In this document: piece after piece, positions 7,828-64,000 of the stretch
Layout of the letters: each line of letters begins with the position of its first letter
Position numbering within the stretch: position 1 is the first letter of the stretch
NCBI GenBank assembly: GCA_039630085.1
Contig: JBCNVM010000002.1
Location: forward strand, 84,721 to 148,720
Source of the DNA: Candidatus Caldarchaeales archaeon
Lineage (GTDB): Archaea > Thermoproteota > Nitrososphaeria_A > Caldarchaeales > Calditenuaceae
Direction of reading: 5' to 3'
Length of the DNA stretch: 64,000 nt
Program-made: the position numbers and the translations under genes
Notes under the pieces: generated by a model
What the model saw: only the letters and a program-made list of their open reading frames with translations
What the model was told of the DNA's origin: nothing
Database searches by the model: none

Positions 7828-8360
7828 CCACCTGCTACGTTGACCGGAGAGACCTCGGAGCACGTGTAGTAGACGACCTCGCCCCGCCTGTCGACGATCG
7901 CGAGCAGGAGCTGCTTCCCCACGTTCTTCGAGTGCCAGACCAGCTCCATCAGGTCCGAGACCTTCACGGGGAAGCCCTCGAAGATCGGGAAGACGAAGTA
8001 CTTCGCGCTGTCGGTCTTCCCCCTCTCGTAGACCATGAGGTAGAGGCCCGGGGACGGCCCGTGCCTGACGTGGTACCTCCTCCTTTTCAGGTCCCGGTAG
8101 ACGACGAAGTTGATCCAGAAGCCCCTCGTCGAGCCCGAGAACCGCCTCACCAGCGAGGTGAAGTCGAGGGCGTCGCCCGCCTCGTCGACGACGATCAGCT
8201 CCCCCTCCTCGGCCAGATAGGCGGCCTCGTAGGGAGTCAGCTCGAGCGTCCCGGGCTCGACGAGCTCGCCGTATCCCCAGCTGTACAGCCTGTTGGCGGC
8301 CGCGCCCCTCACGACGACCCTCTCGTCGCCGACCATTCTGCCCTCCGCGACCTCCTCCAT
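7824..8360 (-). CDS. endA: tRNA-splicing endonuclease subunit, probably structural (beta) type
   Basis: LELTPYEAAYL, VVYRDLKRRRY, LLLAIVDRRGEVVYY; the catalytic Tyr (KYG) and His are not evident. Confidence 0.85.
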   Translation of the reverse strand: MEEVAEGRMVGDERVVVRGAAANRLYSWGYGELVEPGTLELTPYEAAYLAEEGELIVVDEAGDALDFTSLVRRFSGSTRGFWINFVVYRDLKRRRYHVRHGPSPGLYLMVYERGKTDSAKYFVFPIFEGFPVKVSDLMELVWHSKNVGKQLLLAIVDRRGEVVYYTCSEVSPVNVAGG

Positions 8361-12198: not shown

Positions 12199-12294
12199 GG
12201 GGCCGTAGTCCAGCATGGAGTGGACGCCCGGCTAGCATGGAGTGATGCCCGGACTGGGCCCGGGAGGTCGCCGGTTCAAATCCGGCCGGCCCCA
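12199..12294 (+). tRNA. tRNA-Pro(TGG) with 21-nt non-canonical intron at position 33/34 (12234-12254)
   Basis: Acceptor GGGGCCG/CGGCCCC-A; D stem GTCC/GGAC; T arm GCCGG-TTCAAAT-CCGGC. Splice motif: helix CCGG/CCGG, bulges CT^A and AC^T, intron stem GCAT/ATGC. Splicing restores loop CT-TGG-GC. Confidence 0.92.
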
Positions 12295-22061: not shown

Positions 22062-22171
22062 AGCCCGGTCGTCTAGCGGTCAAACTGGCCAGAGGACCAG
22101 GGATTCCGGGCTTTGGATCCCCTCTGGGGAGGAGGAACCCGGAGACGCCGGTTCGAATCCGGCCCGGGCTA
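22062..22171 (+). tRNA. tRNA-Gln(TTG) with two introns: 17 nt at 21/22 (22084-22100) and 20 nt at 37/38 (22117-22136)
   Basis: Acceptor AGCCCGG/CCGGGCT-A. Motif 1: GGTC/GACC helix with AA^A and AG^G bulges. Motif 2: CTTT/GGAG helix with GG^A and GA^A bulges. T arm GCCGG-TTCGAAT-CCGGC. Confidence 0.93.
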
Positions 22172-22308
22172 CCTCAGAGCACGACGTCGAGATGCGAAGG
22201 GCCTCGGTCAGGTCTACTCTGTGGACCGTCAGCTCCCGCTGGGACCTCGCAGGGCACTTGGAGAGCGTCGCGCACGCAAATATACCGGGTCCGACTTCGT
22301 TCGTGGGA

Positions 22309-45328: not shown

Positions 45329-45413
45329 GCCCCGGTAGCTCAGCGGGAGAGCGACCGGCTGAAGTCCGTCGGCGGGGACCGGTAGGTCGTGGGTTCAAGT
45401 CCCACCCGGGGCA
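45329..45413 (+). tRNA. tRNA-Phe(GAA) with 13-nt intron at 37/38 (45365-45377)
   Basis: Acceptor GCCCCGG/CCGGGGC-A; D stem GCTC/GAGC; anticodon stem ACCGG/CCGGT; T arm GTGGG-TTCAAGT-CCCAC. Confidence 0.93.
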
Positions 45414-45462
45414 CGCGGGGCGCGCTCGCAAAGTTTTAACCGGGAGGAGCGGTGAGGTCTGT

Positions 45463-59920: not shown

Positions 59921-60356
59921 GGCGCTAGAGGCCCGACCCGCATTATTTAGGTTGTCTTCCCGCGAGCCCGTTCAGCGGCAGGTCCGTCGGTGCGTTTATT
60001 AGAGAGCGTTCTACCCTACTATAGTTGGCGTGAACGCCGCGGGCGGTAGACCCGCGGCGGGATGCGGGAGCTCATGCTGTGACCGCGTCATGGGAGGGCG
60101 TTGGAGCGCGGCAAGATAGGGCGCGCCTTGGCCCGAGCAGGGGTACGCCGGCCGGTGGATGCCTCGGCTTGGGCGCCGAAGAAGGACGTGGCAAGCTGCG
60201 GTAAGCTCCGGGTACCCGCAGGCAGGGGTGGATCCGGAGATCTCCTAATGGGACATCCCGTGGCGGGCTTCGGCTCGCCGCGTTCCCGGGCGCAAGCCTG
60301 GGATCGGGAACCCCCCGAACGGAAGCATCCAAGTAGGGGGAGGAGGAGAAATCAAA

Positions 60357-60390
<34 letters not shown>

Positions 60391-62181
60391 GCAGCCCAAA
60401 CCGAACCCTTCGGGGAAACTCGGGGGGAATGTGGGGTTATGGGCCGGAGGCCCGCCCTGAAGGCCGAGCCGAACTCCCCTGGAACGGGGGGCCAGAGAGG
60501 GTGAAAGCCCCGTAGGCGAAGGCCGGATGGGCGATGCTCCGGACCCTGAGTACCGCACCTCGGATATGGTGCGGGAAGTCGGGGGCCACTGGCCTCCAAG
60601 GCTAAATACGTCCCAAGACCGATAGCGGACCAGTAGCGTGAGCGAAAGGTGAAAAGTACCCCGGGAGGGGGGTGAAAAGCGCCTGAAACCGGCCGGTAAC
60701 AGACGTGGGCGGCCCGAAAGGGAAATCCCCGTCAAGGCCCCGACGAGGGGCCGCGCGGGGACAATCCCAGGGTCGCCCGCTCCGTCTTGAAACACGGGCC
60801 GGGGAGTTCACGGGTGTGGCGAGTCTAAGGGCTGGAAGCCCGAAGGCGTAGGGAAACCGACCTGCCCGCAGCGGCTTCGGGCCGCGAGGGGCGGGGTCCG
60901 AAAGGGCCTGTAGCCACGCCCGTGAGGCTAGAAACCGGGCGATCTAGCCCTGGGCAGGGCGAAGCCGGGGGAAACCCCGGTCGAGGCCCGAATAGGGGTC
61001 TTGGTGTGCAATTCGGTCCCCTGACCTGGGGCTAGGAGTCAAAAGCTAACCGAGCCCGGTGATAGCTAGTTCCCCCCGAAGTGTCTCGCAGGACAGCCTC
61101 GGGGGAGGTTGCCTGCGGGGTAGGGCACTGATGGGGGAGAAAGGGGCCGATGAGGCCCCGCTCTCCTTTCAAACCACGAACCCGCGGGCGCCGCAGATCC
61201 CGGGAGTGGGGTACTGGGGGTAAGCTCCGGGACCGAGAGGGGAACAACCCAGACCCCGGGTTAAGGCCCCAAAGTGCCCGCTAAGTGACAAACCGAAGGG
61301 CGTCTTCACCCTGAGACAGCGGGGCCGTAGGCTTAGAAGCAGCCATCGGCCAAGAAGTGCGTAACAGCTTACCCGCCGAGGGTGGGGGCCCCGAAAATTG
61401 ACGGGTCTAAGCGGGCCGCCGAAACCCGGGCTCACCCCTGCTCTGCAGGGGTGGGGGTAGGGGGGCGTGGCGGTTGGGCGGAAGCGGGGCCGTGAGGTCC
61501 CGTGGACCGGCCGCCAATGCAGATCCCGGCGGTAGTAGACAGCGAAGAGAGGTGGGAATCCTCTCCGCCGGAAGGGCACGGGTTCCCCGGCAATGCGTCG
61601 TCAGCCGGGGGTAAGCCGGTCCTAAGGCCGACCTTAACCGGGTAGGCCGAAGGGGAAGCCGGTTAAGATTCCGGCGCCTCCCGGGTAGGTGCGGCGACGC
61701 AGGCCGGGCCCCTGACGCTTCGGGGTAGGCCGACCGGGGCCGTAGCTCCGGCCAAGCGCTGAAGCCTGGGGAGTGCCGTAAAGGCGAGAACCAGGTGAAG
61801 GCGCGACGGGGCGGCGTATGCCGCTTCGGCCGATCCCCGGAGCCAGTGAAAAGGGGGTCCGGACCGATCCCGGGAGACCGTACCTAGATCCGACACTGGT
61901 GCCCCTGGCTGAGAAGGCCAAGGCGTCTGGGGTGACTCCGGGCCAGGGAACTCGGCAAAATGGCCCCGTAACCTCGGGAGAAGGGGTGCCTGCTTTCCTC
62001 TCCGACGAGGAGGGGTTGGCAGGTCGCAGTGACCAGGGGGTCCTGACTGTTTAATAAAAACATAGGAAGCCGCGAGGCCGAAAGGCTTCGAACGGCTTCT
62101 GAATCCTGGCCAGCACCGGTACCTGAAACCCGGGTCCAACCGGGATAAGGGCCGGCTAGCGCCGGGGGTAATCCTGACCCT

Positions 62182-63005
62182 CGAGTAAGGGGGTCGTTAA
62201 ACGCGGCTGTATGCGGGGAAGGGCGAGGTCCCGGATACCCTTCGGGGTAACAATTCCGTGACCGGTGAGCTCGACCCGCAGGAAACCGCCCCGTGAACGG
62301 CTAATACCGGACGGCTCGCGGAAAGTCCGGTGACCCTCGCGTACCTGATCGGCGTCATGCTCGGCGACGGCGGCGTCTACGGCAACTACTACACGGTCTT
62401 CTGCAGGGACCAGAGCCTTGAGTTCGTCGAGTACGTCGCCCGCCTCGTGGAGGAACTCTTCGGGATAAGGCCGAACCTGAGGAGGGCAGGCTCAAACCAT
62501 TACATTGCCACGACGAACGTCCGGTGGGTCCACGACTTCCTCCTGAGGATCGGCTTCCCGAAGGGGCGGAAGCTCGTCAACGCTGAGATACCGCCGCTGT
62601 TCAGGGACAGCCTCGACGTCGTTAAGGGGCTCTTCGACACCGAGGGCTACGTCGGGGTCGACGTCCAGCGGCACGGCGAGAGGCAATACCGGTACCCGTA
62701 CGTCGGGTTCGACGTGATCGCGAAGCCCCTCGTCGTCCAGTCGCACCGCATCCTCTCCGCCAACGGGATCCATTCCGCTTATTTTCGGAGAGAACCGCAC
62801 GCGTGGGGAAAACACGTCCAGTGGAGGCTGCAGGTCAAGGGATGGGAGAACGTCGAGCTGTTCCGCGAGAAGGTCGGTTTCAGACACCCCGTCAAGGCGG
62901 AGAAGCTCGAGGAGGTCTTGCGTGAGGGCGGGATCCTCAGAGACCATACGCCGCGCACCCGTCAAGGGTGATGATATGGTCCACCACCGATTCTTGTCGG
63001 TGGAG
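62182..63005 (+). mobile_element. Group I intron (IB-like) at the E. coli L1923-equivalent site, 824 nt
   Basis: Exon ends in U and intron ends in G. P1 GACCCU/GGGGUC with U-G pair; P10 UAAG/CUUA; P3 CGCGGC/GCCGCG; P4 UGCGGG/CCCGCA; P7 GACCA/UGGUC with CAGAGACCAUA and GAUAUGGUC; P8 and P9 hairpins. Confidence 0.93.
62330..62971 (+). CDS. Intron-encoded two-motif LAGLIDADG homing endonuclease
   Basis: Motifs LAYLIGVMLGDGG and VVKGLFDTEGY; FREKVGFRHPVK tail typical of intein-type DOD endonucleases. Confidence 0.93.
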   Translation: MTLAYLIGVMLGDGGVYGNYYTVFCRDQSLEFVEYVARLVEELFGIRPNLRRAGSNHYIATTNVRWVHDFLLRIGFPKGRKLVNAEIPPLFRDSLDVVKGLFDTEGYVGVDVQRHGERQYRYPYVGFDVIAKPLVVQSHRILSANGIHSAYFRREPHAWGKHVQWRLQVKGWENVELFREKVGFRHPVKAEKLEEVLREGGILRDHTPRTRQG

Positions 63006-63311
63006 CTTAAGGTAGCCAAATGCCTTGTCGGGTGAGTTCCGACGCGCATGAATGGATCAACGAGGGCCCCACTGTCCCGGCCCGGAGCCCCGTGAACCCA
63101 CATAACGTGGACGAACAGTCCACGAGCCCCCAGCGGGGAGAGAAGACCCTGTGGAGCTTTACTGCAGCCTGTCGCTGCGGGACGGCTTTGGGTGCATAGC
63201 GTAGCCGGGAGCCGTCGATCCGGACCTCTCCGGGGGTCCGGGGAGGCGCCAATGTAACACCGGCCACCTGGGGCTGTCCCGCTAACCGGGGCCTGTGCCT
63301 TGGGACAACGG

Positions 63312-63342
<31 letters not shown>

Positions 63343-64000
63343 CCCGAAAAGATATCGGGGGAGCCCAAAGGTCGGCTCAGGCGGGACAGAAACCCGCTGT
63401 AGAGTGCAAGGGCAAAAGCCGGCCTGACGGGACCCTCGAACGCGAGGGGTCCTGAGGGGAAACCCGGGCCTAGCGATCCATCGGCCCCTACCAGTGGGGG
63501 CCGGTGGTGACAGAAAAGTTACCCCAGGGATAACAGGCTCGTCGCGGGCGAGAGTCCCCATCGACCCCGCGGCTTGGTACCTCGATGTCGGCTCTTCCCA
63601 TCCTGGCCTCGCAGCAGGGGCCAAGGGTGAGGCTGCTCGCCTATCAAAGGGGAACGTGAGCTGGGTTTAGACCGGCGTGAGCCAGGTCGGATTCTACCTG
63701 CTGGGGGTGCGGGCCGCCTGAGGGTAGGGTCCTCCTAGTACGAGAGGAACGGAGGGCCGGGGCCAACGGTGTACCGGTCGTCCTACAGGGCGACGCCGGG
63801 CAGCCGCGCCCCTGTGGATAAGGGCTGAAAGCATCTAAGCCCGAAGCCACTCCCAAAAATAGGCGGCCGATCGGGGCCTATAGGGCCCGGTAACGGGCCT
63901 TGGGCCCCGACGAGGGCTCCCCTAGAAGAGGGGGTTGATGGGGTGGGCGTGTACGGGCGGAGGCGTAATGCCGGACGCCCTCAGCGCGCCACTCCCAATC

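Follow-up and report, generated by a model that had tools for sequence, protein, structure and literature searches.

A putative mobile group I intron with a LAGLIDADG reading frame interrupts 23S rRNA in an uncultured hot-spring archaeon

RESULTS

We analyzed a 64,000-nucleotide (nt) stretch of archaeal DNA, called the window here (G000:C12:84721-148720), which contains an 824-nt insert in a 23S rRNA gene. The Rfam model of the archaeal large-subunit (LSU; 23S) rRNA, RF02540, matched the plus strand at 60146 to 64000 (2454.9 bits, model positions 16 to 2974 of 2987), and the gene continues up to the last base of the window, where the contig stops as well. The gene is 3,855 nt long versus 2,959 model positions, and the excess is almost entirely in one block, at 62182 to 63005. 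An open reading frame (ORF) of 213 amino acids with a GTG start lies inside this block on the plus strand (62330 to 62971). The 5' junction reads GACCCT (ending at 62181) followed by CGAGTAAG, and the 3' junction reads GGTGGAG (ending at 63005) followed by CTTAAGGTAGCC. With longer flanks, the insert begins with CGAGTAAGGGGGTC after GACCCT and ends with CGGTGGAG before CTTAAGGTAGCC. A C at both 62182 and 63006 leaves the boundary uncertain by one base; only the placement at 62182 to 63005 has a U before the insert and a G at its end.

Taking out these 824 nt yields GACCCTCTTAAGGTAGCC. The uninterrupted site, TGACCCTCTTAAGGTAGCCAAATGCC, is present in relatives, including one of the same genus (G001). 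An earlier reading of this DNA, made without database searches (the sequence-only reading), had stated that removal of 62182 to 63005 restores the site. This was borne out, as the spliced form is the uninterrupted form of the intron-less relatives.

The genome (G000) has 1,412,510 bases in 66 contigs and is 89.93% complete, and is thus a metagenome-assembled genome (MAG). The nearest named relatives of the ORF also come from MAGs: Nitrososphaerota archaeon, Candidatus Calditenuis sp., Candidatus Calditenuaceae archaeon, Archaeon HR02, and one Hadesarchaea archaeon. Most of the stretch is found in DNA run X1, a hot-springs metagenome. The host is thus no cultured thermophile but an uncultured archaeon from a hot spring, of the Aigarchaeota/Calditenuaceae group. 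The sequence-only reading had set the insert against the rRNA introns of cultured thermophiles, which is the wrong frame for a MAG with MAG relatives and a hot-springs metagenome as its best DNA holder. Because the host is uncultured, it is among the lineages in which archaeal group I introns have already been reported. RF01959 found no small-subunit rRNA gene in any part of the assembly, including the 60 kb that precede the 23S gene, and the 16S gene is either unlinked to the 23S gene or unassembled.

The insert and its flanking exons can be drawn as a group I intron, with all elements on the plus strand. P1 is formed by the end of the 5' exon (GACCCU, 62176 to 62181) and an internal guide (GGGGUC, 62190 to 62195), which places a U62181-G62190 wobble at the 5' splice site. 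The guide bases AAG (62187 to 62189) pair with the start of the 3' exon (CUU, 63006 to 63008) as P10. P3 (CGCGGC at 62202 to 62207 with GCCGCG at 62950 to 62955) spans the ORF. The region from 62212 to 62280 contains P4 (62212 to 62217 with 62275 to 62280), followed by J4/5 (GAA), P5 (62221 to 62224 with 62269 to 62272), P5a (62228 to 62235 with 62255 to 62262), and the P5b hairpin with a UUCG loop (62236 to 62249). P6 (62281 to 62283 with 62934 to 62936) and P6a (62286 to 62291 with 62926 to 62931) close the loop that holds the ORF. P7 (GACCAUA at 62942 to 62948 with UAUGGUC at 62975 to 62981) encloses the P8 hairpin (62956 to 62970, strands 62956 to 62960 and 62966 to 62970) and J8/7 (AUGA). 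The P9 hairpin (62984 to 62989 with 62998 to 63003) is followed by an A and then the terminal G at 63005.

Minimum free energy folding of 62212 to 62280 alone gave P4, P5, P5a, and P5b, and 62937 to 63005 folded alone gave P7 enclosing P8, then P9. We could place every element that the sequence-only reading had paired by eye (P1, P3, P4, P7, P8, P9, P10, and omega-G), and we added P5, P5a, P5b, P6, and P6a. A guanosine-binding pair was sought within P7, and none was assigned. The insert therefore has the features that mark group I membership: a P1 with a U-G wobble, an ordered P3 to P9 core with a P3/P7 pseudoknot, and omega-G.

The intron DNA matched 15 of 61 related genomes (G000 counted). 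We collected 17 distinct full-length introns, the one in the window included, of 753 to 1,137 nt. All have the same flanking exon sequences at the same 23S site. In a MAFFT alignment of them (A1), the first ~130 nt and the last ~85 nt are conserved, and the ORFs lie in the variable region between. Six presumed duplicates were omitted from A1 (L021 to L026, duplicates of L002, L005, L003, L007, L004, and L006, respectively), having been judged by equal length and by the same 85 bases at the 5' junction and 80 bases at the 3' junction, not over their full length. Also omitted were an intron that lies over two contigs (G018, L008 plus L020) and one cut at a contig end (G366, L034).

We counted base pairs on A1 for 52 pairs in 11 helices (P1, P10, P3, P4, P5, P5b, P6, P6a, P7, P8, and P9), or 878 cells. 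Standard pairs made up 95.0% of the cells, compared with 86.3 ± 0.7% after shuffling, and 18 pairs changed on both sides, compared with 11.0 ± 1.6. The covariation score was 0.264, compared with 0.105. None of 500 shuffles reached the true value for any of these three measures. Individual cells changed on both sides numbered 83, versus 28.4 in the shuffles. When the 3' partners were slid by 1 to 3 columns, only 39 to 51% of the cells paired, and 1 to 8 pairs had double changes.

P1 was the most telling helix. All six of its pairs are standard in 17/17 introns, and the U-G pair at the 5' splice site is invariant, with the 5' exon always ending in U and the guide always offering G. Two other pairs have double changes, from C-G to U-A in 8/17 introns and from G-C to A-U in 1/17. 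As a result, the guide follows the host exon: GACCCU with GGGGUC in eight introns, GACUCU with GGAGUC in another eight, and AACCCU with GGGGUU in the one from a Hadesarchaea MAG.

P3, P6, and P6a covary across 640 to 1,000 nt of ORF. All P3 cells (100%) are paired, and two P3 pairs changed on both sides; at one position the pair is G-C in seven introns, C-G in six, and U-A in four. In P6/P6a, 94.8% of the cells are paired and four pairs changed on both sides, with one P6a position being G-C in eight introns, A-U in five, and C-G in four. Changes on both sides also occur at all four P5 pairs, two P8 pairs, and all three counted P9 pairs. P4 is invariant, as is P7 except in 1 of 119 cells, and the terminal G is present in 17/17. 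P10 gave no covariation test, since two of its three pairs never change and the remaining one forms in 11/17 introns.

With the ORF left out, a covariance model gave a match below its curated threshold. With the ORF-free 3' core (62925 to 63012), the group I model RF00028 was the sole match among 4,227 Rfam families (62925 to 63002, 16.0 bits, E = 0.021, model positions 127 to 253 of 253). This alignment covers P3', P8, J8/7-P7', and P9 in order, in agreement with the helices that we drew. A homologue of 1,133 nt in G024 gave 22.5 bits in the same test (E = 2.6e-4).

Group I introns have been described in archaea by Nawrocki, Jones and Eddy (2018, PMC6125680), who found 39 of them with IB4 and IA3 subtype models and none with RF00028 or ten subtype models. 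Nine of these are IB4 introns at LSU/1923 (IB4.7,.9,.11,.13,.17,.18,.20,.21, and.28; PMC6125680, Table 1). One, IB4.9, is from Aigarchaeota and is 1,133 nt long by its coordinates (IB4 model E = 2.0e-7; PMC6125680, Table 1). The G024 homologue shares length, site, and group with IB4.9, which places the intron in the window in the published family, and we adopted the site number (L1923) and the subtype from that Aigarchaeota intron at the same site (PMC6125680). The sequence-only reading had given the same site number and had expected an IB-type intron. Both fit, because the published relative at LSU/1923 is IB4 and the 1,133-nt homologue aligns with the intron in the window. However, the surprise that it implied was overstated, since an IB4 group I intron at LSU/1923 in Aigarchaeota was already published (PMC6125680).

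Of the published introns, IB4.9 is the closest to the one in the window. The intron in the window and this 1,133-nt form have in common the host gene, the site, the phylum-level group, uncultured archaeal hosts, a LAGLIDADG ORF, and the fact that RF00028 misses them as whole introns. The G024 homologue, from the same order, aligns with the window intron through P1 to P6a and P6a' to P9. They differ in that the 824-nt intron in the window has a 213-amino-acid LAGLIDADG_3 ORF, whereas the 1,133-nt form has a 330-amino-acid double LAGLIDADG_1 ORF. Also, the two host families differ within the order.

The ORF in the window matches PF14528 (LAGLIDADG_3) in two stretches (E = 4.7e-13, 49.7 bits against a cutoff of 22.5). 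Its frame is intact, and its translation has two LAGLIDADG motifs, LGDGG and FDTEGY. Therefore, it encodes a putative LAGLIDADG homing endonuclease. Intact orthologues are 64 to 88% identical in six relatives and 53% identical in the Hadesarchaea MAG. The final ~15 codons read through P6a', P6', P7, P3', and P8.

Across the family, the ribozyme is conserved, but its P6a loop holds one of three kinds of LAGLIDADG ORF (A1 columns ~200 to 1250, L001 to L037), as assigned by grouping in A1 and by ORF length, with Pfam run on one or two representatives of each type. The LAGLIDADG_3 type is in 8/17 introns, namely, the window (213 amino acids) and seven relatives (213 to 229). A short LAGLIDADG_1 type (180 to 186 amino acids) is in 6/17, and a double LAGLIDADG_1 type (330 amino acids from an internal start) is in 3/17. 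The genes of both LAGLIDADG_1 types are I-CeuI/I-OnuI-like. The C-terminal codons of all three kinds run through the ribozyme core, each in a different frame. Among Protein Data Bank (PDB) entries, the short LAGLIDADG_1 representative matched 4lq0 best (1.2e-33) and also I-CeuI (2ex5; 2.1e-13), and the long representative matched I-CeuI at E = 2.3e-7. The protein in the window matched only 2dch (E = 0.0035) and not I-CeuI, and BLASTP found no significant similarity between it and the 180-amino-acid type (E = 0.55).

Among 401 genomes sampled across the phylum, close relatives of the window protein were found only inside this intron family. Distant relatives (24 to 37% identity) were found in very long frames, which are probably inteins, and in a bulge-helix-bulge (BHB)-like rRNA intron of G040. 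The host genome has a LAGLIDADG domain outside the window (G000:C2:44294-44887) that is 30% identical and lies inside a 699-amino-acid open frame; this too is probably an intein.

We also ran the survey of L1923 occupancy that the sequence-only reading had proposed. Of the 14 other genomes in the family of the host, 9 contain the intron, 3 have an empty site (including the same-genus G001), and 2 gave neither. In the phylum sample, the first 149 nt of the intron matched 18/401 genomes and the empty-site pattern was found in 175/401. All of these figures are finds and not rates, because many MAGs have no assembled 23S gene. This patchy distribution fits a mobile element. The Hadesarchaea MAG (L027, JAGGTB010000028.1) has an 853-nt intron with the same ribozyme and endonuclease type, whose guide is fitted to its own exon, which indicates spread across phyla. 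One relative, G008, has two versions of the empty site, GACCCT (C1:531948-531973) and GACTCT (C4:1883-1908), so that either its 23S gene comes in two variants or the bin is contaminated.

DISCUSSION

Architecture, covariation, and homology to the published archaeal IB4 family support well the assignment of 62182 to 63005 to group I. Our best explanation, which we consider very likely, is that a mobile group I intron, of subtype IB4 judging by its relatives, occupies L1923 in the 23S gene of a hot-spring archaeon, an uncultured member of the Aigarchaeota/Calditenuaceae group.

Several points weigh against this interpretation. RF00028 had no match on 62100 to 63100 at E ≤ 10 or on the whole genome at E ≤ 1, and the 5' core alone returned only unrelated Rfam families at chance level (E = 2.5 to 9.9). 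The covariance hit expected by the sequence-only reading therefore appeared in part, on the 3' core and not on the whole intron or 5' core. Even there, no match attained the curated threshold (16 bits versus a gathering score of 50), and the 3'-core stretch was picked by us before the test, making it supporting evidence only. P2 was sought when the helices were placed, and none was identified. P4 and P7 never vary, making them uninformative either way, though consistent with a catalytic core. Some pairs are weak: the fourth P5 pair forms in 7/17 introns, the third P6 pair in 11/17, and P5b in 78% of its cells. Further pair types numbered 40 versus 38.6 in the shuffles (174/500 reached this), which is chance level. 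Both controls are flattering, because the structure was drawn on the same sequences, which favors it over the slid versions, and because kinship of the sequences inflates the contrast with the shuffles. Also, the putative IB4 label is borrowed from relatives, and splicing in the host is something that we infer.

Even so, the size and location of the covariation effect are hard to explain except by real helices. The failure of RF00028 on the whole intron is explained by its failure on all published archaeal introns (PMC6125680). We did not count the whole-intron and whole-genome results as refutation because the ORF splits the ribozyme and the same failure has been published (PMC6125680).

General group I chemistry suggests how the intron might work. 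In the pre-rRNA, the exon end GACCCU would pair with the guide GGGGUC to form P1, and the P3-P4-P5-P6 and P7-P8-P9 core would fold, its P3/P7 pseudoknot bridging the ORF. The attack 3' of U62181 would then come from a free guanosine at P7. After that, the terminal G63005 would enter the guanosine site while P10 (AAG with CUU) held the 3' exon, and exon ligation would produce ...GACCCU-CUUAAGG.... The two-motif, 213-amino-acid LAGLIDADG protein would cut intron-less sites, and repair would copy the intron into them (homing). Self-splicing, endonuclease activity with homing, and thermostability are all properties that we infer for the intron in the window from its sequence.

LAGLIDADG proteins are established maturases for group I introns in organelles. 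By analogy, the insert could be a group I intron by descent whose ribozyme is not autonomous and needs a protein helper, for example, its own LAGLIDADG protein as a maturase. The missing P2 is compatible with this, as is the overlap of the ORF with P6a' to P8, which would make translation and folding compete. However, the core is fully kept, with P4 and P7 invariant, the U-G pair and terminal G in all 17 introns, and compensatory changes in the peripheral helices. Furthermore, the same ribozyme occurs with three unrelated loop ORFs, which argues against dependence on one particular protein. We therefore regard a helper-dependent ribozyme as unlikely.

Could the insert instead be an archaeal BHB intron that is cut by EndA? 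The genome has two EndA-family (PF01974) frames (97.2 and 55.6 bits). The intron ORF in the window encodes a LAGLIDADG_3 protein, for which the one PDB match, 2dch, is an archaeal putative homing endonuclease. Also, the 23S gene of a relative, G040, has a BHB-like intron with a LAGLIDADG_3 ORF that is 27% identical. We scanned locally for BHB motifs in both arrangements and at both junctions, with offsets of ±3 and ±6. Under a strict criterion (central helix 4/4, outer helices at least 3/4), nothing was found in the window, and the few matches in relatives were all at offsets that would give the wrong product. A relaxed criterion (central helix 4/4, flanking helices at least 6/8, offsets ±6) was calibrated on the G040 intron, a 667-nt 23S insert with a 4-bp central helix, bulges AAA and AAG, and an 8-bp inner helix. 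It detected this positive control, but 0/17 introns of the L1923 family had a motif that would preserve the product, and 2/17 had chance motifs with the wrong product. What is conserved and covaries here is a group I core, including an exon-guide helix for which a BHB intron has no use. EndA is encoded, yet it has no visible BHB substrate at this site, so the BHB explanation is disfavored, to the point of being very improbable. The sequence-only reading had called the insert group I and not BHB, and the covarying group I architecture and the absence of product-preserving BHB motifs in all 17 introns agree with it.

The G040 insert deserves a separate description. It is at L070:1809-2475 (G040:C50), near LSU model position ~1211, and its ORF (L070:1861-2523) encodes 220 amino acids. 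G040 also has the L1923 group I intron, so a group I intron and a BHB-type intron are within one 23S gene.

That the insert is an artefact, either of chimeric assembly or of a contaminating contig in the wrong bin, is extremely unlikely. In favor of it, the assembly is a MAG, its contig breaks off within the 23S gene, and it has no 16S gene. Against it, the 23S gene shares its contig, which has at least 148,720 bases, with tRNAs, an EndA-family frame, and an archaeal RNase P RNA; independent X1 DNA contigs cover 62037 to 62215 and 62193 to 62951 with 0 differences, and homologous introns with matching exon-guide pairing occur in 17 further genomes. Because the X1 contigs are identical over the intron and the 5' junction, the insert is no assembly artefact of this MAG alone.

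Some metatranscriptome contigs join 62181 directly to 63006 (four in X4, eight in X7, and six in X8), but we did not count them as splicing evidence. An intron-less relative gives the same form, the shorter side of the joined contigs is only 22 to 28 letters, and the runs are from other studies than that of X1. The loose-end consensus before 63006 is the exon variant of a relative. RNA cover is lacking in most bins of the intron, and this was not used as evidence either. One X8 RNA contig joins backwards, from 62949 to 62205 (P3' to P3 strand) with three extra letters between; this may be a template-switch artefact at complementary strands or a variant from a relative.

Related introns are known outside the archaea. 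Chloroplast LSU intron 5 of Chlamydomonas eugametos encodes I-CeuI, and Nesbo and Doolittle reportedly described group I introns in bacterial 23S genes of Thermotoga in 2003. Like the intron in the window, these are group I introns with LAGLIDADG genes in the same stretch of 23S domain IV. The likeness to I-CeuI extends to the LAGLIDADG_1 endonucleases of 9/17 homologues, as judged from representatives. Here, however, the hosts are archaeal and the endonuclease in the window has no I-CeuI match; the comparison covers site and protein. Archaeal BHB introns in rRNA genes can also carry LAGLIDADG genes, the I-DmoI and I-PorI introns being examples. They share with the intron in the window an archaeal rRNA host, a thermophilic setting, and an intron gene of the LAGLIDADG_3 type, whereas the intron in the window has no BHB motif at its junctions and has a group I core instead.

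The three ORF kinds raise the idea that the endonuclease gene has been exchanged within one ribozyme scaffold, always in the P6a loop, with LAGLIDADG_3 possibly coming from the archaeal BHB-intron pool. We put this forward tentatively, as more doubtful than probable, and it merits a phylogenetic test. If LAGLIDADG_3 did come from that pool, endonuclease genes would move between BHB and group I introns that share rRNA genes. The family would then be a concrete system in which to test a proposed group I ancestry of BHB introns, and it would be a natural source of group I ribozymes, probably heat-stable, whose host organisms have EndA as well.

For the mobile group I intron itself, the significance is more modest. 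It is a real intron but no new kind of element, and the picture set by the 2018 paper is unchanged (PMC6125680). Archaeal group I introns are few, and this one joins them as a well-supported member with a covariation-tested secondary structure. A literature search on archaeal group I introns, Aigarchaeota, and Calditenuis, in sources that included few subscription journals, returned the 2018 paper (PMC6125680) and its citations. Within that literature, archaeal group I introns are known from sequence alone, and there was no report of a splicing assay of one and no description of an L1923 intron in Calditenuaceae. The family makes a useful test set: its 17 full-length copies come from archaea of hot springs and the subsurface, one of them from another phylum; a single genus has both occupied and empty sites; and one loop accommodates three different endonuclease genes. 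A first high-temperature test of archaeal self-splicing could be based on it, as could a study of homing-endonuclease specificity at L1923.

The sequence-only reading had also stated that the genome uses BHB splicing for its tRNAs. The two PF01974 frames, at 7869 to 8120 on the minus strand of the window and at G000:C45:32467-32703, are in open frames of 186 and 321 amino acids, which suggests a two-subunit EndA. Three tRNA-like genes of 85 to 96 nt are in the window (12199 to 12294, 22086 to 22173, and 45329 to 45414). Rfam and ARAGORN agree on the one at 45329 only; the 96-nt gene was missed by ARAGORN, and Rfam did not report the 88-nt gene at its gathering score. The claim is thus backed in part, by the enzyme frames and the long tRNA-like genes; folding of these genes did not place introns or BHB motifs in them with confidence. 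All three genes probably contain introns.

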